In this document: piece after piece, positions 14,435 to 43,623 of the stretch
How positions within the stretch are numbered: the stretch's first letter is position 1
Layout: each line of letters begins with the position of its first letter
Source: an uncultured bacterium
Lineage (GTDB): Bacteria; Babelota; Babeliae; Babelales; Babelaceae
DNA length: 64,000 nucleotides
Direction of reading: 5' to 3'
Assembly (NCBI GenBank): GCA_963848965.1
Contig: CAWKFG010000004.1
Location: 768,001 to 832,000, forward strand
The notes under the pieces: generated by a model
Told to the model about the DNA's origin: nothing
Databases searched by the model: none
What the model saw: the letters and a program-made list of their open reading frames with translations, nothing else
Program-made: the position numbers and the translations under genes

Positions 14435-15658
14435 ATGAACAAACTAATAAAACCAGTTCTTTTACTTTTTACAACTATTTTCGTTCAGACATTGTATCCT
14501 TTTTCTTCATACCGATTACTCAAAAATGGGCAAAGTAACTATGTTCTTCTTTTAGGAGAGATTCATAACTCTGTTGCAAATCCTACAAGAACTGATGTAG
14601 AGACATTTATTCAAACTTTCCTCAAGTATGAATTGAGCAAGCCTATACCATGTGTTGTAGAGCTTGGTAAAGAAGCTCAATCTCTTTTTATGACAGGTAA
14701 GCAACCTGAGGATATAACAGTTGGTAAAACATTTGTTCAATTAGCAGAATATGCACAAACCTATAAAGATGCTCTTAGTTCTCGTCTTAGCTTTGTCCTT
14801 TACGATCCACGAGAACTTGAAAGTGACATAATCAATTCAACTAGCAGTATGCTTTCTCGAGAAATAAAAACACTTAAGTATAATTTTCTTCCTTTTCCAA
14901 ACTCTTTAGAATGGCAAGCGGATAAAAACAAGATTATTTTAACAAGTCATGAGCCGCTATCTCTTTATACTTACTTTTCAAATCTTGGAGACTATCATAG
15001 AAAAATATGTTTTATGAGAGACAGGTTTGCTCTTGACTCTCCTTTTTTACCTATTTTTAATGCTCATATTACTTCTTTAGAAAAAGCAATTTTTCAGGTG
15101 CTCAATTTATTCACTAATATAGATCCAAACATGCGACTAGAAACTGCTCTATTAACACTTTTTGACAGATGTGTCTCATTGCCTGCACAAGAAGCATGGA
15201 ATCGCTACACAGAAGTTATTAAGCTTTTGTTGGATACGGTTGATTATCCGTACGCTCAAATTATGTTTTTAGGCAAACTTCTTGAGTTACTTCAGAATTC
15301 ACGAAAAGTTATTATGATTTTAAGTGAAGATCATGCAGTAAAGCTTTCAGAATTTCTTCAAAAAGGTGGTTATACGCTTTTAAGAGAAGAAGTTATTTTT
15401 AAAGAAGCTGAAGAAAGTTTAAGGAATGCTCTTTCCGTTGGAATCGATGGTTGGCACACAGACTTAGTAAAGCTTGCTACTTTTTCTAAGCACTTAGCAG
15501 AAGAGCTTGAAATCTTCTTAGAAAAACAGTTCCCTTGTACTGTATGTCAAAAAAAGAGTGAAAAAAAAGTCTGCTCTCAATGCAGGACAACTTATTACTG
15601 TAGTAGCCAATGCCAACGATCACATTGGCCACAACATAAGTTAACATGCAAGAAGTGA
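14435..15658 (+). CDS. Secreted protein, EreA/ChaN/TIKI-like N-terminal region + C-terminal MYND finger
   Basis: Signal peptide; LLGEIH, VVE, SEDH motifs; CTVC...CSQCRTTYYCSSQCQRSHWPQHKLTC. Confidence 0.75.
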   Translation: MNKLIKPVLLLFTTIFVQTLYPFSSYRLLKNGQSNYVLLLGEIHNSVANPTRTDVETFIQTFLKYELSKPIPCVVELGKEAQSLFMTGKQPEDITVGKTFVQLAEYAQTYKDALSSRLSFVLYDPRELESDIINSTSSMLSREIKTLKYNFLPFPNSLEWQADKNKIILTSHEPLSLYTYFSNLGDYHRKICFMRDRFALDSPFLPIFNAHITSLEKAIFQVLNLFTNIDPNMRLETALLTLFDRCVSLPAQEAWNRYTEVIKLLLDTVDYPYAQIMFLGKLLELLQNSRKVIMILSEDHAVKLSEFLQKGGYTLLREEVIFKEAEESLRNALSVGIDGWHTDLVKLATFSKHLAEELEIFLEKQFPCTVCQKKSEKKVCSQCRTTYYCSSQCQRSHWPQHKLTCKK

Positions 15659-15697: not shown

Positions 15698-18600
15698 TCA
15701 TTTTTTATCTGTTTTCTTTTTTATCTCATCTTTTAGAAGCTTGATAACGTGTTTATCCTTCCAAAACTCTGCAAGCTGCATAACATCTTGTCCTGTTGAG
15801 CATCTCAGTGATACATCAAGATGAGGAACTTTTAAAAGCATTTTTATTATCTCTAATTTATTTGCTCTATACTCGCTCATTATACCCTTATTTTTTTGTA
15901 TAAAAGTTTTCTTTGCTTCACTCAATATTTTATGAGGCTCAACTTGGCAAGCACTCATAAGCGGAGTTGCTTTTTGTGCATAGGTCTGAATATTAACATC
16001 TGCCTTATGAGCAAGAAGAAGTGCTGCTATTTCTTTGAGGCCCAGAGAACATGCATAATGTAAAGCAGTACAACCTGTATCATCTTGGCTATCAACAGAG
16101 GCTCCAGAATCAAGCAGAAGCTTAACCACCTCTGGTAAGTCATGTTGTACTGCCCATCCAAGTGCAGTACGTCTTAGATTATCAACTTTATTTACATCAG
16201 CTTTATGTTCAACTAAAAGCCGAACAACTGCTTCTCTTTGTGCCTTTGTAAGCACATCATGAGGAGCTGAACACATACATATGAGTGCTGTTCTTCCATC
16301 TCTTGCACTTATATTAGTATCTGCATTATGTGTAAGAAGAAGTTTCATAATAGAGGAGTGTCCATAACTACTTGCTACCATTAAAGCAGTTAATCCTTCA
16401 TTATTTTGCCTATTAACATCAGCATGATAGTCAAGCAAGAGTTTAACACGTACTTCATTATTATTCTGGCAGCATAGTATAAGAGGTGTGTTACCTTGCT
16501 CATTTGCGCAATTAACATTAGCCTTTTGCTCGAGTAACAACTGAGCTACTTCTTTGTGATTATGCTGACAAGCAAGTAACAAAGGAGTTGTTACTGGAGC
16601 TTCATTTGCAGTAAAGCGTAAAAGCGAAGAAAATAATCCTTGTCGTGGCAACGATCCATTAACACATGCTCCATTTTTAATGAGCATACGCGCAATCTCA
16701 GCGTTACCTGACCTTGCAGCCCCGTTAAGAGCAGTCTGCCCACTAGCAGTTACTGCATTACTATCTGCACCATAGTTTATAAGAAGACGCACCACTTCTG
16801 GATTAGGCTCTGGTAAATGACATGCAATTATAAGAGCAGTAATACCCTCTTTAGCTCTCTGATTTACGTCAGCACCATATTTAAGAAGCGTCTCAATAAT
16901 AGCGCTATCTACTTCTTGTAAAACAGCTTGCAGCAGTAGGGGATTACCAGTTGCTGGATCTACAATCATAGTATTTAAGTTTGGCTTTACTATCCCAAGA
17001 ATTTTCTTTAGATCATCAGCAGTACCGCCATAGAGACAAACAAGAGGTACTAATGCTGGAAGATTACTTTTATCAATACGGAGGAATTTATCATCTTTCA
17101 TAGTTCCATTACGCACAGCCTCTTGCATATGGGGGTCTTGCAATGAATCCTTAATCCTAGACACAAAAGTGAAAAAATGTTGTGCTAAAACGAATAAGAG
17201 GCTATCAGGAAATTCTTCAAAGCCTATGCAAACCTTATAGTTCCCTTCAAATACTGCATAAGTAAATAGTACCGACAAAGTATCCTTATGGTAATGATCT
17301 ACTATATAGTTCAAAGAATCAAATTCGGTATGTTTCATAAGATCTTGTAAAGGAACAGATATCCTCTTTAAAAGGTGTTCAAGAAGTTGTGGAGCACGAT
17401 TCTTTACCAAGGTAGCAAGAACATGCGCTTTAACTTTAAGAGAAAGCGATACAAAATCTATCTCTTTATCAAGAGCATCAAAAAGCGCTTGACTATTAGT
17501 GTGCGGTGCTTGACATACCTTCCCTAATAAAGCAGTTAACTGCTGCATTCCATAAACTTCAAGCAGCTTTTGGATACCGCTCGATATATGCTTTGTTATA
17601 GTAAATGCATTTTTGCTTTCGTGACTGCGCAGAAATACAGAAGCTCCTTTAACAAGAAGCTTTTCTACTAAAGATGCTTTACCACCTTGTATAGCTATTA
17701 TAAGAGCTGTTATACCTTTCTTATCTTGTTGATCTATAATAAGATCCTGCTTTGAAAGGAGTATAGCAACTGCTTCTTCATTATTACGCTCTACAGCAAC
17801 CATAAGCGCGGTTCTACCAAGAGGGTCACTATAGTTACTAGTAGTAGATCTATCTTTTTGAAGAGTCTCAACATCATTGCAATAAGCTGCAATCATTAAA
17901 GGTGAATAGCCCAGTCTTTGTAAGCGCTCTACTTCGCTTTTTTGTTCTTGCAAAAGCGTAGTACGCTGTTTTTCCTGTTTTGCATATTCTTCTTGGGTTA
18001 TATGCGATTGTAATTCTTTTAAAGCATTGCTATCAGCAGGTGCATAATTTATAGCAGTTTTACCAGAATTATCTTGCTCATGAAGTTGTAGACCTTTTTT
18101 ATAAAGGTAAGTAATAAGTGATGCATGATCTGATAGAGCTGCTATCATAAGAGCATTTTGACCTTTACCATTTTTGTATGGTAAAACAGAAGGATAGAAA
18201 GTAAGAAGCTGCTCAATGACAGGAAGTACATTATATCGTATTGCCTCTAAGAAGAGCTCTCCAGCCTGAGTCTGAGAAAAATTGATAACACGCTTTTCTA
18301 TAAAAGATAAAAAATATCCAAGAGAGCCTGCGTTTTGCAAAGCTTTTGTCAACGCATAGGGGTAATTAATACCGATGAATGCAAGAAGATTAGTATAATT
18401 TCCTCGTTGTTCTTTATACTGAACTTCGAGGAGTTTTAAGAACCATTCTTCAATAAGCTCTCTTTTTAGAGAGTGATGTTGTATGAGAGTTGAAAATATG
18501 CCTATATTTCTAGTAAATGCTAACGTAAGTGCTTCATGATATACTTCAGGAGCTCTCTGTAATGGTGCTTTTAACAACTGTTCTACAACAGTAGCTTTAC

Positions 18601-20155
18601 TCTCTTTTACCGCAAATAAGAATATTTTATTGAGTATTTTTTCTTCTAAAGAGTTCAATGCTTGTAACGATGAACGAGAGATAGTTCCTTTAAGAATTTC
18701 TTCTTTAAGAGTTTGAAGAAATACTTCTTGCTTTTTTTGTTGCTCTTTATGCTCTGCTAATGCTTTCTTTTCTTTCTCCTTCTCATGTAAAAGAGAAACT
18801 ATTTCTTGAATATTAAGCTGAGTAGCAAGCATATATGCTGTTTCTTCACGTTGGTTTCTTATTGTACAATAATCTGCTTGATGGTCTAATAAGCATTTTG
18901 CAAGCGAAACATTATGATGTGCAAGAGCATGCATAAGTGCAGTATATCCATCACTGTCTTGCGCATTTAACAAACTGCCCTTTTTTAACGTAGCTTCAAT
19001 AAAGGCTTTGCAAGCTTCTAGTTCTTCTTTTGCTAAAGTATGATGCTTAATTGCGTATATAAGAGGGGTACAACCATAATTATCAGAAGTGTTTACATCA
19101 GCACCAAGATAAAGCAACAGCTCTGCGATATCGTACAGCTTTCTTTGTAATGCTCTCATTAAAGGAGTTTCGCCCTTCTTATTCGCTTTATTAATGACAG
19201 CTTGATGTGCAAGCCCAAGAACGGCTTCATACACTTCAGAATCGATAGCATAATGTAACGCCGTATTTCCGACATTGTCTTGTTCCTCTAACAAAATCCC
19301 TCGCTCTAAAAATACATTAATAAGATCACATCTACCTGCTTGAGCTGCAAGCATTAAAGCAGTTTGACCTTTCTCATTTTTTACCTCTATAGCAGACTCT
19401 TCAAGAAGATCTATAACCGAGTAGAGTGAACAATCCTGTTGTGAAAGTATTTTAAATAGTTCTGTAGGCGTTTCTTGCTTATTCTCTCTTACGGTAAGAT
19501 TCTCAGCTCTTTGCTGTACGGCTATCGTTTCTAATGATCCCAAAAGTACTTTTTTTGTTTCTTTTACAATAGGATGAATGGTAAGAATATGAGTACGCAA
19601 GGACTTGTGAAGAACAAGTTTAAGAGGAACTCGTGCAAGATCGTACAGAGCTTTCATAGTAATAGAATAAGTATGTTCTGCTTGCGGTAACGGCATACTT
19701 TCATAAACGCTTTGTTCAGCTAATTCTTGTATATAGGTAGCAACAGCTTTTAAGCTCCAGGTAGAAGGGAAAAAGCTTTTTGGTTGAGCATATACCTTCC
19801 CTTGGTAGATTATATATCCAGTATGAAACGTAGAGATATCGTTGTACGTAAAAATCCAGAGATGTTTATTTACCTTAATAAGAGTTCCATTCAGTACCTC
19901 TTCTATCTTTGGGTTAGTATGTCCATAATAGTGAAATCCTGATATTTTATCATCTTTTTCAAAAGATACTCTTTGATATGTCGTAATATGTTTAAGCACA
20001 TCTTTTAGGGGTAAAATATAGTGATGGCCTCCTAAAGAAAGAGAAATGAGAGAGCTAAAGACATCTGAGCTCTTTTCAGGAGCTTGCATAGTATAGGTGC
20101 TAACACCTATACCTAAAGTGAGTAGAATAAGACAAAAAAAGCGTTGTATATGCAT
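15698..20155 (-). CDS. 1485-aa secreted ankyrin-repeat protein with N-terminal EndoU-like nuclease domain
   Basis: Signal peptide; LKHI...ISGFH...KSFFPSTWS...ILTIHPI; several blocks of GxTAL/TPL ankyrin repeats. Confidence 0.85.
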   Translation of the reverse strand: MHIQRFFCLILLTLGIGVSTYTMQAPEKSSDVFSSLISLSLGGHHYILPLKDVLKHITTYQRVSFEKDDKISGFHYYGHTNPKIEEVLNGTLIKVNKHLWIFTYNDISTFHTGYIIYQGKVYAQPKSFFPSTWSLKAVATYIQELAEQSVYESMPLPQAEHTYSITMKALYDLARVPLKLVLHKSLRTHILTIHPIVKETKKVLLGSLETIAVQQRAENLTVRENKQETPTELFKILSQQDCSLYSVIDLLEESAIEVKNEKGQTALMLAAQAGRCDLINVFLERGILLEEQDNVGNTALHYAIDSEVYEAVLGLAHQAVINKANKKGETPLMRALQRKLYDIAELLLYLGADVNTSDNYGCTPLIYAIKHHTLAKEELEACKAFIEATLKKGSLLNAQDSDGYTALMHALAHHNVSLAKCLLDHQADYCTIRNQREETAYMLATQLNIQEIVSLLHEKEKEKKALAEHKEQQKKQEVFLQTLKEEILKGTISRSSLQALNSLEEKILNKIFLFAVKESKATVVEQLLKAPLQRAPEVYHEALTLAFTRNIGIFSTLIQHHSLKRELIEEWFLKLLEVQYKEQRGNYTNLLAFIGINYPYALTKALQNAGSLGYFLSFIEKRVINFSQTQAGELFLEAIRYNVLPVIEQLLTFYPSVLPYKNGKGQNALMIAALSDHASLITYLYKKGLQLHEQDNSGKTAINYAPADSNALKELQSHITQEEYAKQEKQRTTLLQEQKSEVERLQRLGYSPLMIAAYCNDVETLQKDRSTTSNYSDPLGRTALMVAVERNNEEAVAILLSKQDLIIDQQDKKGITALIIAIQGGKASLVEKLLVKGASVFLRSHESKNAFTITKHISSGIQKLLEVYGMQQLTALLGKVCQAPHTNSQALFDALDKEIDFVSLSLKVKAHVLATLVKNRAPQLLEHLLKRISVPLQDLMKHTEFDSLNYIVDHYHKDTLSVLFTYAVFEGNYKVCIGFEEFPDSLLFVLAQHFFTFVSRIKDSLQDPHMQEAVRNGTMKDDKFLRIDKSNLPALVPLVCLYGGTADDLKKILGIVKPNLNTMIVDPATGNPLLLQAVLQEVDSAIIETLLKYGADVNQRAKEGITALIIACHLPEPNPEVVRLLINYGADSNAVTASGQTALNGAARSGNAEIARMLIKNGACVNGSLPRQGLFSSLLRFTANEAPVTTPLLLACQHNHKEVAQLLLEQKANVNCANEQGNTPLILCCQNNNEVRVKLLLDYHADVNRQNNEGLTALMVASSYGHSSIMKLLLTHNADTNISARDGRTALICMCSAPHDVLTKAQREAVVRLLVEHKADVNKVDNLRRTALGWAVQHDLPEVVKLLLDSGASVDSQDDTGCTALHYACSLGLKEIAALLLAHKADVNIQTYAQKATPLMSACQVEPHKILSEAKKTFIQKNKGIMSEYRANKLEIIKMLLKVPHLDVSLRCSTGQDVMQLAEFWKDKHVIKLLKDEIKKKTDKK

Positions 20156-20409: not shown

Positions 20410-22086
20410 TTATCCTTGGCTACCAAATTTAGGGTCCATCCAAGCTGTATTCCAATAGTGTGCTCCAATAGCTTGAGCTGGTATTTTACCATCTGGAGTT
20501 ACCACTTGTTTTTTTGGATATTCATCTGCCCGTGCAGGATAAATAGTTTGAGGAGGTAAAACTATATCTTGCGTATCCTTACCTGCTGCTAATGCAAATG
20601 CTATAGTAAACATAAAAGGACCTGTTTCAACAATAGTTTTAAACCCATTATTAGGTGCAGATTTTATGTAATCTGGAGCATTCTCGCTCAAGTTACGTTT
20701 GATCATTTCTAATGCCTTATTAACAACAGGATGATCAGGACAAGCTCCAATAAAGGCATTACATAAGTAGACCGACATAGGCTCTAGACCTACAATCATG
20801 TCATACGCCTTGCTATAGGGTAATAATGATTGGAATAGTTCATAATCGGTATCCAAATAATAGCCACCAAAAAGACGAAGCAACTCAAGACGAATAATAT
20901 CAGTAGCTTTACCGAATTTCTTCTCTTTAATTGCAGATTTATACAAGTCACCTGTTACAAATTTTGTTGTATCAAGGTCTTTCAATTCACGTAAGATAAT
21001 AGTTGGATGATTTTCAAGCAATTGTGCAAGCTTAGGTAACTTTTCTTTGCTTTCTATCCAGAAATAGTGAGTCCATCCCTCTGAAGGCATATTATGCTCA
21101 ATACTATTTTCAAGCCATTGAATATACTGAGGTGAAGGATCTTTTGGATTATCATCTGATGTTACCCAGATTTTATGAGTAACAAGAGGCGTTCTATATA
21201 CGGTAGAATCAAGCAAGTCTGGATCTTGCTTTAAAAGTGACGCAATGTTATTACGCGCATATAAAGTTTGTCTTTGTCGATCTATTTCAGCAAGACTGAG
21301 TCCCTCTTTGTGTCCCACAGAATCTGTGTAGTCATAGCTTCCATTAAATTCACGCCTAAATGCTTTTTCTTCATCTGAAATAGTAGGATCATTCAATTGT
21401 TCATCATTAAACTTCTTAGAAGTAAAATCAAAGTGATGATATTGATGAAGGAAATGACGATCTTGTACCATTTCAATATTTACTTGAAGATAGCTATCTT
21501 CAGTAAATTTAGGATTTAAAAAGAAGAGAGGATTATCGTCTACTGGCTTGATAGAACGAACAATAATACCATTCTGCTTTTCAAACACATACAACTCATA
21601 AGGCTTTATAGTAACTTCATCGCTCTTAAAGAAATCAGGTTTATCTTTAGCCTCATACTTTACTTTTAATGTAATTGATTCACTTGTTTTATTTTCAATA
21701 ACAAAACCATCTTCAATACGCAATTTCTTGATAAACGAATTAAAGTCTCTTCGAGCATCATAAAGAGCCTTTTGTGAGAGAATCATTTTCTTAAAGAGAT
21801 TTTTTTCAGATTCCTTCACATGCTTTAATTGAGGTTTTTTAGCTCGTATAAGCTCAAGAAAACTCTTAAGCTTTCCTTGCTTCTTTCTTTTAGATAGTTT
21901 CTTTTTAAAGTTTTTCTCGTGCTTTAACCGAAACCTTTCAGCTTTTGCACGCCTAAAAAAGCTCTTATGCTTTCCTTTCTTCTTTAGACCATGAGCCGGA
22001 GGTGTTTTATGTTTAATAGCTGCATGAGCTTCACACCCTCCAAATGTTAATAAAAGCAAATAGAATATTAAAAAAGATTTATTCAT
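20410..22086 (-). CDS. Secreted DxD glycosyltransferase (GT32/GT44-like) with Lys/Arg-rich N-terminus
   Basis: HKIWV, ATDIIRLELL..FGGYYLDTD, NAFIG, TGP, HYWNTAW. Confidence 0.85.
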   Translation of the reverse strand: MNKSFLIFYLLLLTFGGCEAHAAIKHKTPPAHGLKKKGKHKSFFRRAKAERFRLKHEKNFKKKLSKRKKQGKLKSFLELIRAKKPQLKHVKESEKNLFKKMILSQKALYDARRDFNSFIKKLRIEDGFVIENKTSESITLKVKYEAKDKPDFFKSDEVTIKPYELYVFEKQNGIIVRSIKPVDDNPLFFLNPKFTEDSYLQVNIEMVQDRHFLHQYHHFDFTSKKFNDEQLNDPTISDEEKAFRREFNGSYDYTDSVGHKEGLSLAEIDRQRQTLYARNNIASLLKQDPDLLDSTVYRTPLVTHKIWVTSDDNPKDPSPQYIQWLENSIEHNMPSEGWTHYFWIESKEKLPKLAQLLENHPTIILRELKDLDTTKFVTGDLYKSAIKEKKFGKATDIIRLELLRLFGGYYLDTDYELFQSLLPYSKAYDMIVGLEPMSVYLCNAFIGACPDHPVVNKALEMIKRNLSENAPDYIKSAPNNGFKTIVETGPFMFTIAFALAAGKDTQDIVLPPQTIYPARADEYPKKQVVTPDGKIPAQAIGAHYWNTAWMDPKFGSQG

Positions 22087-23275: not shown

Positions 23276-24019
23276 ATGAAACAGATACTACTTGCAATTC
23301 AGAATATTTCTAAAGCATATAATCATACTCTTGCAGTCAAAGATGTATCGCTTACTATTTACGAAGGTGAGATACTTGGTCTACTAGGCTCTAATGGAGC
23401 AGGAAAGACAACGCTTTCTTCACTTATTGCAACATTACATCCACCTACAAGCGGCACTATTTTGTATAAGGGCACTTCTATTTATAAAAATGTTCCTGCG
23501 TATCGAATGAATATTGGTTTCTGTCCACAAAAACCAAACTTTGATTCTACAATGACAGTAAAAGAAAATCTTCTTTTTGCAGGAAGATACTTTGGCCTCT
23601 CTTACGAGCAAACAGAGCAAAGAGTAGCATTTCTTATACAAGAGTTTGGTCTTAGTGCACATGCAGATAAGCAACCGGATGTGCTTTCAGGAGGATATAA
23701 ACAGCGGCTTCTTATTGCTAGAGCGCTGGTTCATAATCCTACTATTCTCATTCTTGATGAGCCTACTGTTGCTTTAGATCCACATGTACGCAGACAAGTA
23801 TGGAATTCTATTAAGCATCTTAAAATGCTTGGTATCACTGTTATTTTAACTACTCATTATTTAGATGAAGCAGAGTACCTTGCAGATAGGGTATGTATTA
23901 TGGATAAAGGGGTAATTAAAGTGATTGATACTCCTGAAAACTTGCTTTCTACTTATGGTAAAAAAACGTTAGAAGAAGTATTTATTGATTATATGGAAAA
24001 ACAAGAGGAACTCTCATGA
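23276..24019 (+). CDS. ABC exporter ATP-binding subunit (DrrA/NodI-like)
   Basis: GSNGAGKTT, LSGG, LILDEPT, TTHY. Confidence 0.95.
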   Translation: MKQILLAIQNISKAYNHTLAVKDVSLTIYEGEILGLLGSNGAGKTTLSSLIATLHPPTSGTILYKGTSIYKNVPAYRMNIGFCPQKPNFDSTMTVKENLLFAGRYFGLSYEQTEQRVAFLIQEFGLSAHADKQPDVLSGGYKQRLLIARALVHNPTILILDEPTVALDPHVRRQVWNSIKHLKMLGITVILTTHYLDEAEYLADRVCIMDKGVIKVIDTPENLLSTYGKKTLEEVFIDYMEKQEELS

Positions 24020-24801
24020 ATACAGTACAACCATTGAAAACCTTTAGATTTTTATTATGGCGCGATTTACGCCTATTAAGATCTGGTTTTATACACTATC
24101 TCATTGACACGCTTATATGGACAGGCTCTAATGTCATCATCAGTGGTTATTTATTACCTTTGCTTGGCATGGGCCGTTCATATGGTAATTTTATGCTTGT
24201 AGGATCAACTATTAGCATGTGCTTTTTTTATGCAATAAATAAAAGCCATGATCTTGTAGCTGATTTTGAAGGAAGTAAGAATATTACCTATGATCTTGTA
24301 CTTCCTATTGCTTCATGGGCAGTGTTCTTTAAAATAGCCCTGAGCTTTGCACTACAAGCAGCTCTTGTTAATATCTTAGCAATTCCTTTAGGCAAAATAC
24401 TTCTAGGAGAATCTCTGCATATGAGCTTATTTGCATGCAGTAAAGTGATAATGGTATTCAGCCTCATTGCCATTTTCCTTGGCTTCTTTGGTCTCTGGGT
24501 TGCAAGTTGGGTAAAGCATCCATCATTGTATCCTCATGTATGGATGCGCTTTATATTGCCTTTATGGGCTTTTGGCGGCTATCAGTTCTCTTGGTATACA
24601 CTCAAAGGTGCTTATCCTTTGATAGCGTATGCTAGCTTACTAAATCCAATGGTTTACACATTTGAAAGCCTCCGAGCAGTACTATTAGGACAAGAGGAAT
24701 ATATTCCATTAGCAGTATGTATTTTTATGCTTACTATGTTTACTCTCCTGCTTTGGGTTCATACATTGTATCTTTTAAAGAAACGGCTTGACTATATCTA
24801 A
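24016..24801 (+). CDS. ABC-2 type permease
   Basis: About six TM helices, LLNPMVY..ESLR; ATGA coupling to the ATPase. Confidence 0.88.
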   Translation: MNTVQPLKTFRFLLWRDLRLLRSGFIHYLIDTLIWTGSNVIISGYLLPLLGMGRSYGNFMLVGSTISMCFFYAINKSHDLVADFEGSKNITYDLVLPIASWAVFFKIALSFALQAALVNILAIPLGKILLGESLHMSLFACSKVIMVFSLIAIFLGFFGLWVASWVKHPSLYPHVWMRFILPLWAFGGYQFSWYTLKGAYPLIAYASLLNPMVYTFESLRAVLLGQEEYIPLAVCIFMLTMFTLLLWVHTLYLLKKRLDYI

Positions 24802-24803: not shown

Positions 24804-24833
24804 ACAGGGTAGGATCTTCCTACCCTGTTTTTT
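24804..24833 (+). terminator. Rho-independent terminator
   Basis: acagggtagga-tct-tcctaccctgt followed by a T run. Confidence 0.85.
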
Positions 24834-24926
24834 GTATCTTTTAAACATGTATTACCTTGTCTTTTTTCACTCTTAAAGTATTATTGAAAAGATAGCGGTA
24901 TGATATAAGAAACCTTAGGTCTTTCT

Positions 24927-25682
24927 ATGTTTTTTTCTTTAAAACAAGGTATATACGCAGCTCAAAGTGATCTTAATGTTATACTTCTTGATGCAAACAG
25001 AGATAAGTACTTTAGTATAAGTTCTGAAGTAGGAACCATTTTATTAAGAATTCTTAATACTGAATTTGATTATAGCAATGGAATGTATCGTGCCCTTTCT
25101 GTTCCTGAGGAAGAAAACAGTTTTGATTACTGGATACAGTATTTTATTGAATCAGAGTTTATTGAGCCTCGAGAAACAAAAAGAGATACCATACACTTTA
25201 CTCGTTCTTTAGTATCTGGAGGTCTTACAGGATATCAATGGGATAGAAAGGATCGATTAGTATCTGTTTTTAAAATTTCTCCTGTACTTATTGTACAACT
25301 TCTTTGGATACTTATGAAAGTAAACTTTGCTTTAAAAAGAAAGGGTATACAAGGTGTTCTCAATATGCTAAGAAAGCTTAGCATAAAGCATAAATCTCAA
25401 GAAGTTCATCCTTCACAGATAGAATACTTATCAAACGCTCTTGATGCAGCATGCGCTTTATATCCAAAAAAAATATATTGTCTAGGCTGGGCTACAACGT
25501 TTACTTTAGTGGCACTTAAAAAAGGTTGGAGATGTAACTTGGTAATTGGAGTACAATCACCACCTTTTTATGCTCATGCATGGGCTGAAATAAACAACCA
25601 CGTAGTTAATGATGATAAAATTATCCAAGAACGGCTTGTTGTACTTCTTAAAGAGCCTTTTACAGATAATGTACCTTACTAG
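24927..25682 (+). CDS. Lasso peptide B protein (fused RRE B1 + transglutaminase-like leader peptidase B2)
   Basis: N-terminal VILLD..RDKYF (RRE-like); C-terminal CLGWA, IGVQSPPFYAHAWAE, VND; next to cyclase and precursors. Confidence 0.92.
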   Translation: MFFSLKQGIYAAQSDLNVILLDANRDKYFSISSEVGTILLRILNTEFDYSNGMYRALSVPEEENSFDYWIQYFIESEFIEPRETKRDTIHFTRSLVSGGLTGYQWDRKDRLVSVFKISPVLIVQLLWILMKVNFALKRKGIQGVLNMLRKLSIKHKSQEVHPSQIEYLSNALDAACALYPKKIYCLGWATTFTLVALKKGWRCNLVIGVQSPPFYAHAWAEINNHVVNDDKIIQERLVVLLKEPFTDNVPY

Positions 25683-25705
25683 TATCTCTAGCGAAAGAAA
25701 AAGCT

Positions 25706-27493
25706 ATGCCTCTTATTGCAGGAGCATTTTTAAATCATCATAGTAACAGCTCTTCTCTTGTTCATACATTACTTACTTGTGCAGAATCTAAAATTACTCT
25801 TGATAAGCTTGTATTCACTTATACAAACCAAAGAATAGTTTTAGTAGCAGGTAAAAAAATGCATGAATCATCTGCTGAAAAAGTAATAAATATAGGCCAG
25901 GGATCTGGTATACTGCTTGGACGACTTTTTCAAAAAGGTACTAGTACATTAGTACAACACTTAGAAGAAGAGGAACTAGAGAAGATAAGAGAATCGCAAG
26001 GTAGATGGTTAAGTGAGCGGTACTGGGGCAGGTATCTTGTTATACTGCTAGATGAAGAGAGTATAACAATTTATAGAGACCCACTAGGAGGTATACCGCT
26101 CTTTATTACACAGACAGCTCAAGGAGTAGTGTTCTCTACAGAGCTCTCAATGCTCTATGATGCATTAGAAGAAAAGCCAGTACTTGATTGGACTTACTTT
26201 ACTTCCTATGTAGCAGCGTCATTTACGCTTACTACTGCAACGCCATTTAAAGGAATAGAAGAGGTATTTCCAGGCTCTTATGTAAGCATATCAGCAGAAG
26301 GGTATAAAACAGGTCTTTTTTGGGATCCAACACAGATAGATGTAAAAGAGGAGAAAGAGCTAGAGGAGCAAATACTTGAGACATTTTCAAGCTGTATAAA
26401 GGCATGGACACAAGAAACGGAAGGCATAGCACTAGAGCTATCAGGAGGTCTTGATTCTTCTGCTCTTCTTATACTATTAAAACAGGTAGCTCCTCGTATG
26501 AATATCACTTGTTTTAACTATTTTCATCCTCGTGTAGCTTCTTCTGATGAAAGAAACTATGCAGCGCATGTTGCTCAAGAGTGCAATGTAGAGCTTTATT
26601 GTATAGATCAAAGCCAAGTTTTACCTTTAAGCAGCAATTCAATTCATAAAACAAATAAACCAAGTTCATTTTTACTGCAGGAAGCTCTTAATAGAGAAAT
26701 TACTTCTTTGGTATCTAAAAAAGGTACTTATGAATTTATGAGCGGACAAGGGGGTGATCATCTTTTTCTTGCTCCTCCACTCGTTGAATCTCTGGCAGAT
26801 TATTTTCTTGATAACGGTATAAGAGGAATAAGCTCTAAACTTCATGAGATGTGTGCCTATTATCGAACACCATTCTTAAGCACAGTTGGCCAATCATTAA
26901 ACGCTTTAATTTCTTATTACAGAAGTAAAATAGATCGTATAATTGCAAACTCAGAGATAGAAGACTGGATGACTCCCTCTTTTTTAAGGAGTATAGATCA
27001 AACTATTTATCAACCGCCCTTTTGGAGACAATTAAAGCAAGTGTACCCAGCTAAAGCACAGCATATATACGATATGTACAGCGCACTCCTTTATACAGAT
27101 CAAGGGCATAGAATGGAAAGCAGACCTGTAATTAATCCGTTTTTATCGCAGCCATTTGTAGAACTTGCACTTTCTATTCCTACCTATCAGCTGTATAAAC
27201 AAGAGCATGACCGGTTTCCTTTTAGAAATGCAATAAGTAGAATAAGCACAGCACCAAGTATATGGCGTAAAGATAAAGGAGAAACTACAGGCATTAGCGT
27301 CTTTGCTCTCAATACAAACTATAAGTATATTTGTAAATTGTTGCTCGACGGTAAATTTGTGCAGCATAATCTTATTGATAAAGATAAACTCTATGACCAT
27401 ATCAACCATTGTAAAAATGGTAAATCGTTTAACTTATGGCCTCTTATGAATCTTATATCTGTCGAGCTCTGGTTTGATTCATGGAACCTATAA
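25706..27493 (+). CDS. Lasso cyclase C1 (asparagine synthetase-like)
   Basis: LELSGGLDSS, SGQGGDHLF, NPFL..PFVELALSIP, RFPFR, WRKDKG; lacks the N-terminal Cys of AsnB. Confidence 0.92.
   Translation: MPLIAGAFLNHHSNSSSLVHTLLTCAESKITLDKLVFTYTNQRIVLVAGKKMHESSAEKVINIGQGSGILLGRLFQKGTSTLVQHLEEEELEKIRESQGRWLSERYWGRYLVILLDEESITIYRDPLGGIPLFITQTAQGVVFSTELSMLYDALEEKPVLDWTYFTSYVAASFTLTTATPFKGIEEVFPGSYVSISAEGYKTGLFWDPTQIDVKEEKELEEQILETFSSCIKAWTQETEGIALELSGGLDSSALLILLKQVAPRMNITCFNYFHPRVASSDERNYAAHVAQECNVELYCIDQSQVLPLSSNSIHKTNKPSSFLLQEALNREITSLVSKKGTYEFMSGQGGDHLFLAPPLVESLADYFLDNGIRGISSKLHEMCAYYRTPFLSTVGQSLNALISYYRSKIDRIIANSEIEDWMTPSFLRSIDQTIYQPPFWRQLKQVYPAKAQHIYDMYSALLYTDQGHRMESRPVINPFLSQPFVELALSIPTYQLYKQEHDRFPFRNAISRISTAPSIWRKDKGETTGISVFALNTNYKYICKLLLDGKFVQHNLIDKDKLYDHINHCKNGKSFNLWPLMNLISVELWFDSWNL
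25976..26494 (+). repeat. About 0.5-kb block in C1 repeated near-identically, inverted, in C2 (29345-29860)
   Basis: Direct nucleotide comparison; few substitutions and one codon indel. Confidence 0.9.
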
Positions 27494-27494
27494 A

Positions 27495-27650
27495 CTACAT
27501 GCCCTTTGGTTTAAAATAACCATAATTTTCTGCACATGGTGTTGCTTTACCTAAGGTATATTCTGAAACTTTTGCAAGCTCTGTGATAAGGGCAGCTTTC
27601 TGATCTTCCATAATCTTTACAATTGGCTTTTGCTTTGTATTTTCTTCCAT
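27495..27650 (-). CDS. Lasso precursor A4 (51 aa; core GKATPCAENYGYFKPKGM)
   Basis: Hand translation MEENTKQKPIVKIMEDQKAALITELAKVSEYTL|GKATPCAENYGYFKPKGM; AGGAGG RBS; Thr-2, Gly1, Glu8. Confidence 0.85.
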   Translation of the reverse strand: MEENTKQKPIVKIMEDQKAALITELAKVSEYTLGKATPCAENYGYFKPKGM

Positions 27651-27680
27651 AGTTTTTCCTCCTCTTATAGAATTACTTGT

Positions 27681-27711
27681 AGCAGAAGTAGATTTTATAT
27701 CTACTTCTGCT
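27681..27711. terminator. 13-bp perfect hairpin between precursors A3 and A4
   Basis: agcagaagtagat-tttat-atctacttctgct. Confidence 0.6.
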
Positions 27712-27716
27712 TACAT

Positions 27717-27863
27717 TTACCGTATTTGTCTTCCTATATTTTCTGCAAGTCTACCACTTTTTCCTAAGGTAGTTTTTGAAACAGTGCCTATCTCTGTAAT
27801 AAGAGTAACTTTAGAAGATACCTTTTGCTTTTTACGAAAGCACCAATTACTAAGTATTTTCAT
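27717..27863 (-). CDS. Lasso precursor A3 (48 aa; core GKSGRLAENIGRQIR)
   Basis: MKILSNWCFRKKQKVSSKVTLITEIGTVSKTTL|GKSGRLAENIGRQIR; AGAGGAG RBS before ATG 27863; Gly-8, Thr-2, Gly1, Glu8. Confidence 0.88.
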   Translation of the reverse strand: MKILSNWCFRKKQKVSSKVTLITEIGTVSKTTLGKSGRLAENIGRQIR

Positions 27864-27961
27864 AAGACCTTCTCCTCTATTTATAAAGTGAAACAATGTA
27901 TAGCACATGCAAAAACCATATATACTAATCTTGTACATCAAACTTTTGTAGCTTTTGCTTA

Positions 27962-28132
27962 CTAATTATCTTTTAATGGAGGCCAATAAGTGCGTTTAAA
28001 AGTTTTTTGAAGGCTCTCTAAGTATTTTCCGCCTCTGCCCAGAGTAATTTTTGAAACAGCTCCTAACATTTCAATAGGAGACACCTTATAGGAGGCATCT
28101 TTTTTATTAATGAATATAATAGATCTTTTCAT
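27962..28132 (-). CDS. Lasso precursor A2 (56 aa; core GRGGKYLESLQKTFKRTYWPPLKDN)
   Basis: Hand translation MKRSIIFINKKDASYKVSPIEMLGAVSKITL|core; AAGGAG RBS; Tyr-17, Gly-8, Thr-2, Gly1, Glu8. Confidence 0.9.
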   Translation of the reverse strand: MKRSIIFINKKDASYKVSPIEMLGAVSKITLGRGGKYLESLQKTFKRTYWPPLKDN

Positions 28133-28160
28133 AGGTGTTTCTCCTTACTCTAAACAATAT

Positions 28161-28337
28161 TTATACAGGGTTCCAAGGATGTTTCTTAAAGGTCCTTCGA
28201 AGACTTTCTAAATATTTTCCTCCTCTACCTAAAGTAAGCCTTGAAACGTTTCCTAACATTTCAACAGCAGATACTTTGTAAGAAGCACTTTTCTGTTGAA
28301 CGCAACCTGTTGTGTGTAAATGTTTTTTCTTTTGCAT
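28161..28337 (-). CDS. Lasso precursor A1 (58 aa; core GRGGKYLESLRRTFKKHPWNPV)
   Basis: Hand translation MQKKKHLHTTGCVQQKSASYKVSAVEMLGNVSRLTL|core; AAGGAGGT RBS; starts 17 nt after cyclase C2. Confidence 0.9.
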   Translation of the reverse strand: MQKKKHLHTTGCVQQKSASYKVSAVEMLGNVSRLTLGRGGKYLESLRRTFKKHPWNPV

Positions 28338-28354
28338 GACACCTCCTTACGTTA

Positions 28355-30112
28355 TTAAGAGATATTCCATGTTTTAAACCATAGTTCTGTAGAAAGTAAA
28401 TTTATTAATGGCCCTATATTTACTGGGCTACTATGACACCATTGATTAATATACGTATAAAGTTTATCTTTATCAATGAGATTATGTTGCACAAATTTAC
28501 CTTCAAACAAGAGCTCACATATCTGCTTATACTGAACATTAAAAGCATAGATAGTAACTGCAGTTGTATCCCCTTTATCTTTACGCCATATATTTGGTGC
28601 CTTACTTATCCTACTTATCGCATTTCTAAAAGGGAATCGGTCATGTTCCTGCTTATACAGCTGATAGGTAGGAATAGAAAGCGCAAGCTCAACAAGCGGT
28701 TGAAATAAAAATGGGTTAATTACCGATTTACCTGGTATTCTTTGTACCTTATCCACAGTAACAAGTGCATCATAGAGCGAAACTATATGAGAAAGCTTAC
28801 CTGGATATATTTTAGTATTATCGTGCAAAAAAAGCGTATCATTCTTTACTTGCTCCATAAAAGCGCTATTCATCCAATGTTCACGCTCTAAAGATGCAAG
28901 AAGATGCCTTTTATGTGAAGTATAGTAACGCATTATCTCCATACCTGTATCTTTTATAACTTGTATAAGCGACATTCGATAATAAGCTGCTATCTCAGAT
29001 ATTTTAGAGCTTATTCCTCGTGTACCGCGAATAAAAAAATAATCTGCAAGAGATTCAACAAGTGGAGGTGCAAGAAAAAGGTGGTCCCCTCCATGCCCAC
29101 TCATAAATTCACAGTTCTTCTGAGCAACTAAAGCAGCAGTATGCTTACACATTGCTTCTTCTAATAACAAAGGATGAGGCTTACTAGCTCTTAATTGAGG
29201 AAGCATACTCAATGATATATGCTCACTCAAATCTATACAATGCAGTTCTGCATCACATTCCTGAGCAACTTGAGTTGCATAGTTTCTTTCATCAGAAGAA
29301 GCTACTCGAGAGTGAAAGTAATTAAAGCACGTGATAGGTAGAGTAGGAGCTACCTGTTTGAGCAGTATAAGAAGAGCAGAAGAATCAAGACCTCCTGATA
29401 GCTCTAGTGCTATGCCTTCTGTTTCCTGTGTCCATGCCTTTATACAGCTTGAAAACGTCTCAAGTATTTGCTCCTCTAGTTCTTTCTCCTCTTTTACACC
29501 TATCTGTGTTGGATCCCAAAAAAGACCTGTTTTATACCCTTCTGCTGTTATGCTTACATAAGAGCCTGGAAATACCTCTTCTATTCCTTTAAACGGAGTT
29601 ACTGTAGTAAGAAAATCTGCTGCTACATAGGAGGTAAAGTAAGTCCAGTCAAGTACTGGCTTTTCTTCTAATGCATCATAGAGCATTGAGAGCTCTGTAG
29701 AGAACACTACTCCTTGAGCTGTCTGTGTAATAAAGAGTGGTATACCTCCTAGTGGGTCTCTATAAATTGTTATACTCTCTTCATCTAGCAGTATAACAAG
29801 ATACCTGCCCCAGTACCGCTCACTTAACCATCTACCTTGCGATTCTCTTATCTTTTCTAGCTCCCATTCTTCAAGATTTTCTTTAAGAACTGAGCTTCCC
29901 TTTTCAAAAAGTCGGCCTATAAGCATTCCAGTAGTATGGGTAAAGACCTTGAGCTTTTCGGCAGAAGATTCTTCATTTCTCACCCCACTTTGTATGATAA
30001 AGTTATAGTTTTCTACCGTTGCCCACTGCTTACAAAGCTCTTTAGTAACCGGGTTAATTGACAATGTACGAGCAGTTTTTTCCTTTAAAAAAGCCCCTAG
30101 TAATAAAGGCAT
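28355..30112 (-). CDS. Lasso cyclase C2 (asparagine synthetase-like), paralog of C1
   Basis: LELSGGLDSS, SGHGGDHLF, NPFL, WRKDKG; no N-terminal Cys. Confidence 0.92.
   Translation of the reverse strand: MPLLLGAFLKEKTARTLSINPVTKELCKQWATVENYNFIIQSGVRNEESSAEKLKVFTHTTGMLIGRLFEKGSSVLKENLEEWELEKIRESQGRWLSERYWGRYLVILLDEESITIYRDPLGGIPLFITQTAQGVVFSTELSMLYDALEEKPVLDWTYFTSYVAADFLTTVTPFKGIEEVFPGSYVSITAEGYKTGLFWDPTQIGVKEEKELEEQILETFSSCIKAWTQETEGIALELSGGLDSSALLILLKQVAPTLPITCFNYFHSRVASSDERNYATQVAQECDAELHCIDLSEHISLSMLPQLRASKPHPLLLEEAMCKHTAALVAQKNCEFMSGHGGDHLFLAPPLVESLADYFFIRGTRGISSKISEIAAYYRMSLIQVIKDTGMEIMRYYTSHKRHLLASLEREHWMNSAFMEQVKNDTLFLHDNTKIYPGKLSHIVSLYDALVTVDKVQRIPGKSVINPFLFQPLVELALSIPTYQLYKQEHDRFPFRNAISRISKAPNIWRKDKGDTTAVTIYAFNVQYKQICELLFEGKFVQHNLIDKDKLYTYINQWCHSSPVNIGPLINLLSTELWFKTWNIS
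29345..29860 (-). repeat. Inverted copy of 25976-26494
   Basis: Reverse complement matches the C1 block. Confidence 0.9.
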
Positions 30113-43360: not shown

Positions 43361-43371
43361 TTTACTAGACA

Positions 43372-43623
43372 CTAGTCCTCAACGTCAACATCGTTAATTT
43401 CGTGCTTAAGGAGCGTCTGAAAGTAACGTTGAGATAGGTCATCTTGCGATAGTACTTTAAGAAACCAATCAGGAAATTGTTTGATACCTGCTTCTACTAA
43501 CTCTTTAAAGTTTGTAGTTGCACATTCAAAATCAAAGTCAGGAATAGGTACATCAGAATGAGAAAAATGTATTAATTCGCCAAGAGAATAGTCTTTCCAT
43601 GCAACTTGGTATAGAAGTTTAAT
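43372..43623 (-). pseudogene. Open frame without a standard start (IKLLYQVAWKDYSLGE...DVDVED), possible gene remnant
   Basis: 84 codons including the stop in AT-rich DNA; the nearest ATG is out of frame. Confidence 0.35.

Follow-up and report, generated by a model that had tools for sequence, protein, structure and literature searches.

A probable lasso peptide cluster with a single B protein, two convergent cyclases and four tandem precursors in a member of the Babeliales

Organization of the locus and its host

The locus analyzed here raises the question of whether a single lasso peptide B protein can serve two cyclases and an array of precursors in a bacterium that depends on protists. Within the window (the whole 64,000-nt stretch of DNA that was analyzed), the ORF coordinates agree exactly with the cluster order given in a preliminary description, i.e. 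B and the cyclase C1 on the plus strand, followed by the precursors A4 to A1 and the cyclase C2 on the minus strand (Table 1). We conclude that this is probably a genuine and apparently intact lasso cluster of the class II type in a Babeliales bacterium, with both cyclases using the single B.

Table 1. Features of the cluster and its upstream flank, with nucleotide positions in the window.
Feature	Position	Strand	Description
DrrA-like ABC ATPase	23276-24019	+	PF00005; TIGR01188 236 bits
ABC-2 permease	24016-24801	+	PF01061 20.9 bits, under its cut-off
B	24927-25682	+	Fused RRE and Cys protease; only B in the cluster
C1	25706-27493	+	Lasso cyclase, Asn-synthetase-like, putative ATP-dependent macrolactam synthetase, 595 aa
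Putative gene-conversion tract in C1	25964-26608; inverted partner in C2 29231-29872		Inverted repeats
A4 precursor	27495-27650	-	51 aa; core GKATPCAENYGYFKPKGM (Gly1, Glu8)
RNA hairpin between A3 and A4	27678-27715	-	Strong, without U-tract
A3 precursor	27717-27863	-	48 aa from ATG with RBS; core GKSGRLAENIGRQIR
A2 precursor	27962-28132	-	56 aa; core GRGGKYLESLQKTFKRTYWPPLKDN
A1 precursor	28161-28337	-	58 aa; core GRGGKYLESLRRTFKKHPWNPV
C2	28355-30112	-	Second lasso cyclase, 585 aa; convergent with C1, co-directional with A1-A4

The bacterium is a member of the Dependentiae/Babeliales, obligate parasites or symbionts of protists. According to GTDB, its genome (G000) shares a family (f1) with an uncultured Candidatus Babeliaceae bacterium (G014), and its order also holds genomes named TM6, Candidatus Dependentiae and Candidatus Babeliales (G174, G141, G148). 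This placement, together with a genome size of 1.73 Mb and a window rich in ankyrin, zf-MYND and PLA2_B proteins, bears out the earlier proposal of a probable intracellular protist symbiont.

The two halves of the cluster are head-on, with the stop codons of C1 and A4 only 1 nt apart. RNA folding and inspection of this 1-nt gap found no terminator between the A genes and B-C1, and transcription of the two halves may therefore interfere. The hairpin between A3 and A4 stands out by its stability (-21.9 kcal/mol for the fold of 27651-27716 on the minus strand, z -6.3, with 0 of 200 shuffles equally stable), and may be a processing, stabilizing or partial-termination element.

The B protein and the two cyclases

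The earlier reading of B as an RRE joined to a peptidase was upheld by profile and fold comparisons. B scores 67.7 bits on the NCBIfam model NF033537 (lasso_biosyn_B2; cut-off 33) and about 61 bits on PF13471 (cut-off 26). The catalytic triad of a B2 leader peptidase lies within residues ~118-251, as Cys185, His217 and Asp229, which are invariant among 22 homologues. In the AF2 model of B (pLDDT 90.5), residues 118-251 resemble papain/transglutaminase-like proteases (Z 5-6), while the solved structures nearest to residues 1-84 are TfuB1 (6jx3, fusilassin/fuscanodin) and TbiB1 (5v1v, 5v1u). Residues 1-81 of the model align with TfuB1 (6jx3_B) at Z 8.2 (rmsd 2.7, 75/85 aligned) and the N-terminus aligns with TbiB1 at Z 7.6 and 7.5, compared to 5.5-6.6 for other RiPP RREs. 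Foldseek placed the N-terminus with both TbiB1 and TfuB1 at a probability of 1.00 (E 0.008-0.02), TfuB1 was the sole match in a profile search against the PDB (E 0.0047), and Pfam PqqD gave no match on B at E <= 0.01. The predicted RRE at residues ~1-84 is thus supported by its fold and by one weak profile match. The RRE of lasso clusters is here a domain fused to the protease, whereas in TfuB1 and TbiB1, with which it is 13-20% identical, it is a separate B1 protein.

C1 and C2 had been described as AsnB-like cyclases, and both indeed belong to the Asn_synthase family (PF00733, 76 and 72.7 bits, respectively) and carry the SGGLDS loop. Trees group both with B-linked cyclases instead of with the ~650-aa AsnB-like genes of the phylum; a grouping with true AsnB enzymes had been named by the preliminary description as fatal to its own proposal. 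Among their tree neighbors, B lies directly upstream of the cyclase in 16 of the 18 other Dependentiae loci. The best NCBIfam match of C1 is the macrolactam cyclase model NF033561 (119 bits; 108 for C2; cut-off 300), and for the lasso cyclase model NF033535, of the 'exception' type, the scores were 85 and 82 bits (cut-off 525); since both models are narrow, scores below their cut-offs do not exclude divergent cyclases. The motifs S246-G-G-x-D250-S251 and G349-G-D351 of C1 do not vary among 22 homologues. C1 and C2 both have the SGGxDS PP-loop of a cyclase, and both start with MPL and hence lack Cys2, the glutaminase nucleophile of AsnB.

Paralogy and gene conversion

The two cyclases are 65% identical overall and 50% identical outside the conversion tract, and their genes share inverted repeats of 254 nt (97%) and 381 nt (90%). 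Third-position identity between C1 codons 91-260 and C2 lies for the most part at 0.87-1.0 and falls to 0.76 near codon 170, as compared to 0.3-0.45 in the flanks. At the protein level, the tract is 91% identical between C1 and C2, 76% between C1 and its homolog P0002 and 74% between C2 and P0002, while the corresponding flank values are 50%, 72% and 50%. The lowest conservation between C1 and C2, about 20-45%, is found in the N-terminal ~75 residues and in residues ~300-480. In the tree, P0002 is the orthologue of C1 and split from it later than the C1/C2 duplication. Judging from these sequence comparisons, the paralogues C1 and C2 go back to an old duplication, and recent C1-to-C2 gene conversion has apparently homogenized their catalytic core. 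Their flanks are saturated at third positions and carry no stop or frameshift, which implies that purifying selection has long acted on each of them.

It could be argued that only one of the cyclases is functional, the other being a relic of a second, B-less cluster or of an inverted duplication, with its middle refreshed by conversion. Such a history would fit the presence of one B for two C genes, the overwriting of C2 by C1-type sequence, and the rarity of two-cyclase loci: among 150 related loci (140 with a cyclase match), two separate cyclase genes occur only in L126, where the layout differs. We nevertheless consider it unlikely, as both ORFs are full length and the selection implied by the flanks would have acted on both, and as P0002 diverged from C1 only after the duplication. 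Furthermore, both retain all 41 invariant columns of the 22-sequence alignment; for C2, those beyond the tract include P437, K439, H442, R492, W509 and K513.

Two observations bear on the preferred reading, in which B serves both cyclases. At L111 in another genome (G008), a cyclase lies after three precursors and B is missing from 14 kb of sequence, while a B is encoded at L112 of that genome, an arrangement indicating that one B can serve a cyclase without a B of its own. The predicted fold of C2 with B reached a score of 0.45 (runs 0.43, 0.45 and 0.52), against 0.00 for the best of three controls, with at least 92% of contacts in common between runs and a partner pLDDT of at least 79. Of 157 solved complexes, 116 attained the mark of 0.45, as did 2 of 215 mismatches, and the bracket up to 0.60 holds only 18 of the 157 together with both mismatches. 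Since B and C of lasso clusters are a known family pairing, this fold shows likeness only, and weakly suggests that one B may serve the B-less C2.

Precursor peptides

Each of the four small ORFs has an AGGAG/GAGG-type motif 5-10 nt upstream of its ATG, in line with the strong RBSs reported earlier. Translations checked by hand confirmed K(-16), an aliphatic residue at -12, V-S (-6,-5), T(-2), L(-1), G1 and E8 in 4/4 precursors, and gave the same four core sequences as before. All four thereby combine the Thr(-2), small Gly1 and Asp/Glu at core positions 7-9 of lasso precursors. The mechanically called A3 ORF, with a TTG start, extends to 27941, while the ATG start gives 27717-27863. The predicted cores of the four precursors are cationic and comprise 22, 25, 15 and 18 residues. 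Two ring classes were distinguished, GRGGKYLE in A1/A2 and GK...AE in A3/A4, and A1 and A2 are further linked by a 107-nt direct repeat (76% identical). A position matrix (PSSM) derived from other Dependentiae genomes (38 precursors, with the genome studied here left out) gave 39.4, 38.0, 31.4 and 32.2 bits for A1 to A4, respectively. When the whole genome was shuffled five times, the maximum was 21.7 bits, so the pattern is more than chance. None of the four cores, which had been noted as unfamiliar, was found in the literature or in two lasso data sets.

The 38 precursors, from 15 other loci, have the leader pattern in common. Counted by eye, position -6 is V or A in all 38, position -5 is S in 29 and T in 8, position -8 is G in 33, and Glu occupies core position 8 in 34 and position 9 in 4. 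The same B-C-precursor family was found in 16 of 261 Dependentiae species genomes, and one B protein of this family already carries the NCBI name 'lasso peptide biosynthesis B2 protein [Candidatus Dependentiae bacterium]'. The 1.7-Mb genome studied here, in which a second B-C locus is present, encodes 3 cyclases and has 2 B genes; its precursor-like genes number about 17, and many of them lie far from any enzyme. Sulfotransferase and glycosyltransferase genes adjoin other precursor genes of this genome.

Such modifying genes are one reason to ask whether the products are classical lassos, or instead unthreaded isopeptide (branched-cyclic) or further modified peptides. Topology cannot be read from sequence, A4 has a single Cys, and the 7-residue tail of A3 is short for stable threading. 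On the other hand, the enzyme set is canonical, no tailoring gene was found among the ORFs within 24927-30112, and all precursors except A3 have bulky tail residues (F, W, Y, R, K), which serve as plugs in known lassos, making products other than classical lassos very improbable. Finally, the notion that C1 and C2 are ordinary asparagine synthetases beside chance ORFs is effectively refuted, as their TIGR01536 (asn_synth_AEB) scores of 94-98 bits, although similar to those against the lasso-cyclase models, are far under the cut-off of 267, the N-terminal Cys nucleophile is missing, linkage to the B2 protein is tight both here and in the 16 of 18 other loci, the highest score in shuffles is 21.7 bits compared with 31-39 bits for the precursors, and the ~650-aa AsnB-like genes of the phylum show only partial matches to the cyclase profile (E 1e-21 to 1e-30).

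Proposed pathway

In the pathway that we propose, the RRE of B would bind the conserved part of the leader at about -12 to -5, in a leader that ends V-S-x-x-T-L, and the Cys-His-Asp protease of B would then cleave past Leu(-1), with Thr(-2) as the recognition residue, freeing Gly1. The PP-loop (SGGLDS) of the cyclase would adenylate the Glu8 side chain and link it to the Gly1 amine, closing a macrolactam ring of 8 residues around the threaded tail. With the single B serving both cyclases, the products would be four cationic lasso peptides of 22, 25, 15 and 18 residues.

Our preferred, though unproven, division of labor would have C2 act on A1/A2 and C1 on A3/A4, as suggested solely by adjacency and by the sequence classes of the rings. 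More tentatively, and with some doubt, we entertain the joint reading of a natural specificity split between C1 and C2 and a trans-processed lasso arsenal of a protist parasite. If so, gene conversion would hold the catalytic core identical while the N-terminal ~75 and ~300-480 regions specialize by core class, and the second B-C locus with about 13 dispersed precursors would represent a diversified arsenal rather than a single antibiotic, aimed at the protist host or at co-infecting microbes.

Comparison with known lasso systems

Microcin J25 of E. coli (McjA/B/C/D) has a fused B, an AsnB-like cyclase, Thr(-2) and an eight-residue Gly1-Glu8 ring, and as generally described it resembles the present system in all of these traits. 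A McjD-type exporter is likewise found in related Dependentiae loci and, in trans, in the genome studied here. In contrast to microcin J25, there are two cyclases per B, the four precursors are encoded on the opposite strand, an ABC-2 pair adjoins the cluster in which no McjD-type gene lies, and the producer is an intracellular protist parasite. The caulosegnins and astexins come from multi-precursor proteobacterial lasso clusters with one maturation enzyme set, a feature shared with the present cluster; to our knowledge, these clusters have one cyclase each. A full-text literature search, judged by title and abstract, found no two-cyclase lasso cluster.

Putative lasso clusters have been published before for amoeba symbionts. 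One of these, Aasi_0899-0902, is reported from Amoebophilus asiaticus (PMC8831229; also PMC6232779), with homologues in Paracaedibacter symbiosus and Odyssella thessalonicensis, with higher expression late in infection and in the extracellular stage, and for this cluster a role in host interaction was suggested (PMC8831229). The likeness lies in the possession of a lasso cluster by an obligate intracellular amoeba symbiont, whereas these organisms belong to other phyla (Bacteroidota and Alphaproteobacteria), and the passages of PMC8831229 on the Amoebophilus cluster do not describe two cyclases or precursor arrays. New here are the C1/C2 paralogy with gene conversion, the spread of the family over 16/261 genomes and the genome-wide precursor set.

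Export and the flanking pump

The fused ABC_membrane and ABC_tran domains of a McjD-type exporter do not occur in the cluster, whose neighbor is a split pair consisting of the ABC ATPase and the ABC-2 permease. Other Dependentiae lasso loci have a McjD-type exporter in place of this pair, and the genome encodes, outside the cluster (G000:C4:62172-63899), a homologue of the McjD type that shares 55% identity with the D gene of one such locus (L005). A D gene is not defining for lasso clusters. Export probably proceeds through this McjD-type exporter in trans or through the adjoining ABC-2 pump. The latter is possibly an exporter or immunity pump and an uncertain member of the cluster, as the ABC pair and B are separated by a hairpin resembling a terminator, with a T-run (24804-24828), and by a promoter-like site (24857-24884).

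Layout of the cluster and its precursors

The gene order and strands that the preliminary description gave for the B gene, the cyclase genes C1 and C2 and the precursor genes A1 to A4 agree with both the ORF list and the sequence (see the table). All four small ORFs were also found to have the ribosome binding sites attributed to them (AGGAG/GAGG-type, 5' of the ATG), together with the expected leader and core positions, i.e. K(-16), an aliphatic residue at -12, V-S at -6/-5, T(-2), L(-1), G1 and E8. The cores, GRGGKYLESLRRTFKKHPWNPV, GRGGKYLESLQKTFKRTYWPPLKDN, GKSGRLAENIGRQIR and GKATPCAENYGYFKPKGM, are all strongly cationic, and had earlier been called unrecognised; we likewise found no match to them in the full-text literature, the LassoPred and LassoESM supplements or the PDB. 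Two precursor classes can be distinguished: A1 and A2, with the ring GRGGKYLE, lie beside C2, and A3 and A4, with the rings GKSGRLAE and GKATPCAE, lie beside C1. A1 and A2 are a tandem duplicate, sharing a repeat of 107 nt at 76% identity. Only 1 nt separates the C1 stop codon from that of A4, so the halves of the cluster converge with no terminator in between. In the gap between A3 and A4, a strong hairpin is found that has no U-tract (-21.9 kcal/mol, z -6.3, RNA fold).

The precursors were scored with a position matrix built from 38 precursor-like ORFs adjoining B-C pairs in other Dependentiae genomes, to which the source genome (G000) contributed none. These training ORFs were selected solely by T-x-G, an acidic residue at core position 7-9, a ribosome binding site and a plausible length. 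The four ORFs of the window scored 39.4, 38.0, 31.4 and 32.2 bits, and the maximum in five shuffles of the entire 1.73-Mb genome was 21.7 bits.

Positions of cluster genes, precursor-like ORFs and MutS_V proteins (window numbering unless a contig of G000 or a compared locus, L, is named)
Feature	Position	Strand	Basis
B	24927-25682	+	ORF list and sequence
C1	25706-27493	+	ORF list and sequence
A4	27495-27650	-	ORF list and sequence
A3	27717-27863	-	ATG start with ribosome binding site
A2	27962-28132	-	ORF list and sequence
A1	28161-28337	-	ORF list and sequence
C2	28355-30112	-	ORF list and sequence
Second-locus precursor-like ORF	C4:92198-92335	-	
Second-locus precursor-like ORF	C4:91845-91994	-	
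Second-locus precursor-like ORF	C4:99120-99281	-	
Second-locus precursor-like ORF	C4:99650-99784	+	
Orphan precursor-like ORFs (four)	C4:82978-85293		matrix
Orphan precursor-like ORF	C4:417232-417366		matrix
Orphan precursor-like ORF	C4:421309-421461		matrix
Orphan precursor-like ORF	G000:C1:407470-407640		matrix
Orphan precursor-like ORF	G000:C1:432532-432687		matrix
Orphan precursor-like ORF	G000:C1:448461-448619		matrix
MutS_V protein	L117:8336-11917		Pfam
MutS_V protein	L118:9992-13498		Pfam
MutS_V protein	L119:6398-9199	-	Pfam
MutS_V protein	L120:2296-5331		Pfam
MutS_V protein	L122:2306-5359	-	Pfam

The B protein and the cyclases

B passed the curated NCBIfam lasso B2 model (NF033537; 67.7 bits, cut-off 33) as well as Pfam Transglut_core3, and its residues C185, H217 and D229 do not vary among 22 aligned homologues. 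When the profile of the B alignment was run against the PDB, the lasso RRE TfuB1 was the sole match at E <= 10 (E 0.0047, query 3-80). Residues 1-81 of the AlphaFold2 model of B (pLDDT 90.5) superimpose on TfuB1 with Z 8.2 and rmsd 2.7 over 75 aligned residues, and on TbiB1 with Z 7.6 and 7.5, followed by other RiPP RREs, and residues 118-251 resemble papain/transglutaminase-like proteases (Z 5-6). The curated-model match, the invariant triad, the TfuB1 profile match and the two modelled folds mark B as a fused RRE-peptidase, a fusion likewise found in proteobacterial lasso systems. Of the domains named in the preliminary description, Asn_synthase (C1 76 bits, C2 73 bits) and Transglut_core3/B2 were thus recovered, but Pfam PqqD gave no match to B at E <= 0.01.

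In the cyclases, the S-G-G-x-D-S PP-loop and the G-G-D motif are invariant among 22 homologues. Both C1 and C2 begin with M-P-L and consequently do not have the Cys nucleophile of glutamine-dependent asparagine synthetases. Their best NCBIfam match is the macrolactam cyclase model NF033561 (119 and 108 bits, below the cut-off of 300), with lower scores for the lasso cyclase model NF033535 (85 and 82 bits, cut-off 525) and the AsnB model TIGR01536 (94 and 98 bits, cut-off 267). As no curated cut-off is reached, the assignment rests on motifs, context and phylogeny. With the B2 match, the RRE fold, PP-loop cyclases devoid of the nucleophile and the precursor scores in hand, we judged the reading of the locus as a lasso cluster to be correct.

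Distribution in Dependentiae and beyond

By employing a profile built from 22 cyclases, we found full-length matches (E <= 1e-160) in 16 out of 261 Dependentiae species genomes, including G000, with 20 genes in total, three of which belong to G000. Another 21 genomes had partial matches only (E 1e-21 to 1e-30, in frames of about 500-670 aa), which we take to be ordinary AsnB-type genes, presumably. Of 18 other Dependentiae loci, 16 have a B homologue immediately 5' of the cyclase gene, and in locus L110 it lies 2 kb upstream. The other lasso loci of the phylum harbor 0-5 tandem precursors with a common leader pattern, so multi-precursor arrays are normal for this family. When the 38 training precursors were tallied by eye, V or A was found at -6 in all 38, S at -5 in 29, G at -8 in 33 and L at -1 in 23, with Glu8 in 34 and Glu9 in four. 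In the cyclase tree, the clade holding the three G000 cyclases includes a sub-clade from outside the phylum, i.e. from Ca. Megaera (a Rickettsiaceae endosymbiont), Gammaproteobacteria MAGs, a Methylococcaceae MAG and a Chlorobiaceae MAG. Such a mixture is suggestive of horizontal exchange, with the family passing between Dependentiae and further bacteria, some of them host-associated.

History of the two cyclases

G000 has two B genes versus three cyclase genes, and one B and two cyclases are found in the window. We examined 150 related loci drawn from species genomes and metagenomes; a cyclase match was present in 140, and L126 alone contained two separate cyclase genes. This 5478-bp metagenome contig carries a B gene, a cyclase gene, a McjD-type ABC exporter and a convergent second cyclase running off the contig. 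Since the exporter and no precursor lies between its cyclases, L126 is probably two clusters tail to tail. Another locus, L143, looks like a single cyclase gene in two pieces.

C1 and C2 are 65% identical overall, in a mosaic fashion. Along C1 codons 91-260 the proteins agree at 87-100% of positions, and identity at third codon positions is for the most part 0.87-1.0, falling to 0.76 near codon 170; codons 1-75, about 300-345 and about 376-480, by contrast, show protein identities of 20-47% and saturated third positions (0.3-0.57). A tree of the sequence outside the conversion tract gave (C2,(C1,P0002)), with SH-aLRT values of 100 and 99, where P0002 is a metagenomic protein sharing 72% identity with C1, compared to 50% between C1 and C2. 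Inside the tract, the identities are 91% (C1-C2), 76% (C1-P0002) and 74% (C2-P0002). The tree and these identities together indicate that the duplication predates the split from the organism of P0002, and that C1-type sequence recently overwrote the catalytic core of C2. Every family-invariant column is kept by both cyclases, including those outside the tract, which argues for selection acting on both. P0002 (73% identical to C1) is encoded together with a B-like protein, P0122 (69%), on a 5,442-bp contig; a search for a truncated C2-like protein, meant to show whether the nearest relative shares the two-cyclase layout, gave just two matches (42% and 33%), on other contigs.

At the DNA level, C1 and C2 form an inverted-repeat pair (254 nt at 97%, 381 nt at 90%). 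An inversion switch, where these repeats would in principle flip the precursor array and swap the cyclase C-termini, was considered and set aside. The locus was found in a single public run, X1 (share 0.10), and no RNA run was listed. X1 gave three contigs of 151-216 nt, 100% identical and none with a joint, one of them spanning the junction of the C1 and A4 stop codons in the window orientation; a minority orientation is not covered by these.

Precursors throughout the genome

G000 comprises 1.73 Mb in 5 contigs and is 88.7% complete; the window corresponds to its C4:768001-832000. Its second lasso locus is found at C4:92680-95220 (L117:5681-8242, also L003), with a B 52% identical to that of the window and a third cyclase, C3, 46-47% identical to C1. 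Beyond the window, the matrix identified 12 ORFs of at least 22 bits and one of 14.3 bits beside the second B, giving about 17 precursor-like genes for the genome, with an RBS-like site in 15 of 17. Four flank the second B-C locus, some with Glu9 instead of Glu8, four are located 8-10 kb off, and the other five, two of them at C4:417-421 kb and the rest on contig C1, are distant from all B and cyclase genes. This arrangement implies that the dispersed precursors would be processed in trans, and such dispersal is to our knowledge unusual among lasso systems. The nine ORFs remote from B and cyclase genes score 22-38 bits versus the shuffled maximum of 21.7.

Four of these orphans, along with an IS4/5 transposase, adjoin two Sulfotransfer_1 genes and a DXD glycosyltransferase gene (L118:3768-6323, G000:C4:~79.8-82.3 kb), which could be tailoring enzymes or unrelated effectors. 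Five MutS_V proteins of 933-1193 aa, four also with MutS_III and none with any further recognised domain, all have signal-peptide-like N-termini, and each is encoded at most about 1.5 kb from precursor-like ORFs, three adjacent and on the same strand. G000 has ten MutS_V genes, one being canonical MutS, and MutS-like homologues occur at 8 of 17 other Dependentiae lasso loci. These genes were rejected as obligate lasso partners: the family is found in 183 of 261 Dependentiae genomes, far above the number of cyclase carriers, and is hence not lasso-specific.

Proposed biosynthesis

The steps of the lasso pathway are known from McjB/McjC and split-B systems. By analogy with these, the RRE of B would bind the conserved leader segment and the protease domain, recognising chiefly T(-2), would cut behind L(-1), whereupon a cyclase would adenylate Glu8 and join it to Gly1 in an isopeptide ring that encloses the tail. 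It is plausible that a single B serves a cyclase lacking its own, given another Dependentiae genome, G008, in which a locus with three tandem precursors followed by a cyclase (L111, G008:C6:43500-57500) has no B homologue in the 14 kb fetched and a B-C locus is found elsewhere (L112). The L111 cyclase is plausibly a natural case obliged to borrow B. Co-folding of C2 with B scored 0.45 (best control 0.00), with contact agreement of at least 92% and partner pLDDT of at least 79. Of 157 solved complexes 116 attain this mark, as do 2 of 215 mismatches; marks of at most 0.60 comprise 18 of the 157 complexes and both mismatches. The co-fold lends weak support to a C2-B association, and the score may reflect family likeness only.

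As for the cyclases themselves, each precursor class lies beside one of them, and C1 and C2 differ exactly past the ends of the tract. On this ground we tentatively favor a division of labour, C2 acting on A1/A2 and C1 on A3/A4, over simple redundancy, while regarding it as somewhat doubtful.

Relation to known systems

The cluster is real and correctly interpreted, yet not categorically new. Its chemistry and enzyme set are what we take to be the standard fused-B, Gly1-Glu8 lasso type of microcin J25. One Dependentiae protein, P0129, already bears the NCBI name 'lasso peptide biosynthesis B2 protein'. In the literature examined, apart from the RODEO study (Tietz et al. 2017) with its tables, we found no paper describing lasso peptides of Dependentiae/TM6 and no description of a two-cyclase lasso cluster. 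A listed paper naming both lasso peptides and Dependentiae did so incidentally, none of the listed Dependentiae papers involving antiSMASH concerned lasso peptides by title or abstract, and 'TM6' in lasso peptide papers denotes a transmembrane helix, not the phylum. For the obligate amoeba symbiont Amoebophilus asiaticus, one study notes a lasso cluster with late-stage up-regulation and homologues in Paracaedibacter and Odyssella (PMC8831229).

What makes the cluster valuable is its natural chimeric cyclase pair, together with how large a precursor repertoire a reduced, host-dependent genome carries. As very stable scaffolds and as antibiotics, lasso peptides are in demand, and the determinants of cyclase substrate range are an active engineering question. 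C1 and C2 constitute a natural experiment, with near-identical catalytic middles, 50% identical flanks, two core classes and a common B, and swaps of precursors and enzyme halves could map the specificity determinants directly. Three cyclases, two B proteins and about 17 precursor-like genes are unexpected in a 1.7-Mb host-dependent genome; work on this RiPP class usually concerns free-living bacteria. That such a repertoire is kept, and that about 6% of the Dependentiae species sampled carry the family, speaks for an ecological role inside protists, in host manipulation or competition.

Export and neighboring genes

Export may proceed via a McjD-type homologue at G000:C4:62172-63899, which shares 55% identity with the TM6-locus D gene, or via the DrrAB-like ABC-2 pair adjacent to B (23276-24801). 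The case for the latter as a dedicated exporter is weakened by what separates it from B, a promoter-like site and a terminator-like hairpin that has a T-run, and by related Dependentiae lasso loci, where the nearby ABC genes were McjD-type fused exporters in 7 of 7 scanned. The ABC-2 pump nevertheless remains a candidate, as an orphan precursor-like ORF is found directly upstream of an ABC ATPase and ABC-2 permease of the same type in L121:5533-7736 (G000:C1:432532-434736; ATPases 34.5% identical). The DUF5122 beta-propeller gene directly upstream of C2 (30156-31586) was dismissed as a cluster member and taken as a mere neighbor, since it has no homologue in other lasso loci.

A host-dependent lifestyle is described for Dependentiae in two papers (PMC6561590, PMC4776705), and fits the content of the window, with its many ankyrin-repeat proteins and its zf-MYND, PLA2_B and secretin genes. 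The eukaryote-like genes around the cluster (8573-10039, minus strand; 14435-15658, plus; 15698-20155, minus; 37445-39505, plus; 41813-46579) encode two zf-MYND proteins, a PLA2_B-type lysophospholipase and three ankyrin-repeat proteins, the longest of 1485 aa; a tandem pair of secretin genes is found at 2128-6999. Lastly, the minus-strand gene at 20410-22086 is a candidate for a secreted host-directed glycosyltransferase, its 558-aa product combining a DXD glycosyltransferase domain (Gly_transf_sug, 26.7 bits) with a signal-like N-terminus, a lysine-rich stretch and a weak, below-cut-off match to the TcdA/TcdB catalytic glycosyltransferase domain.
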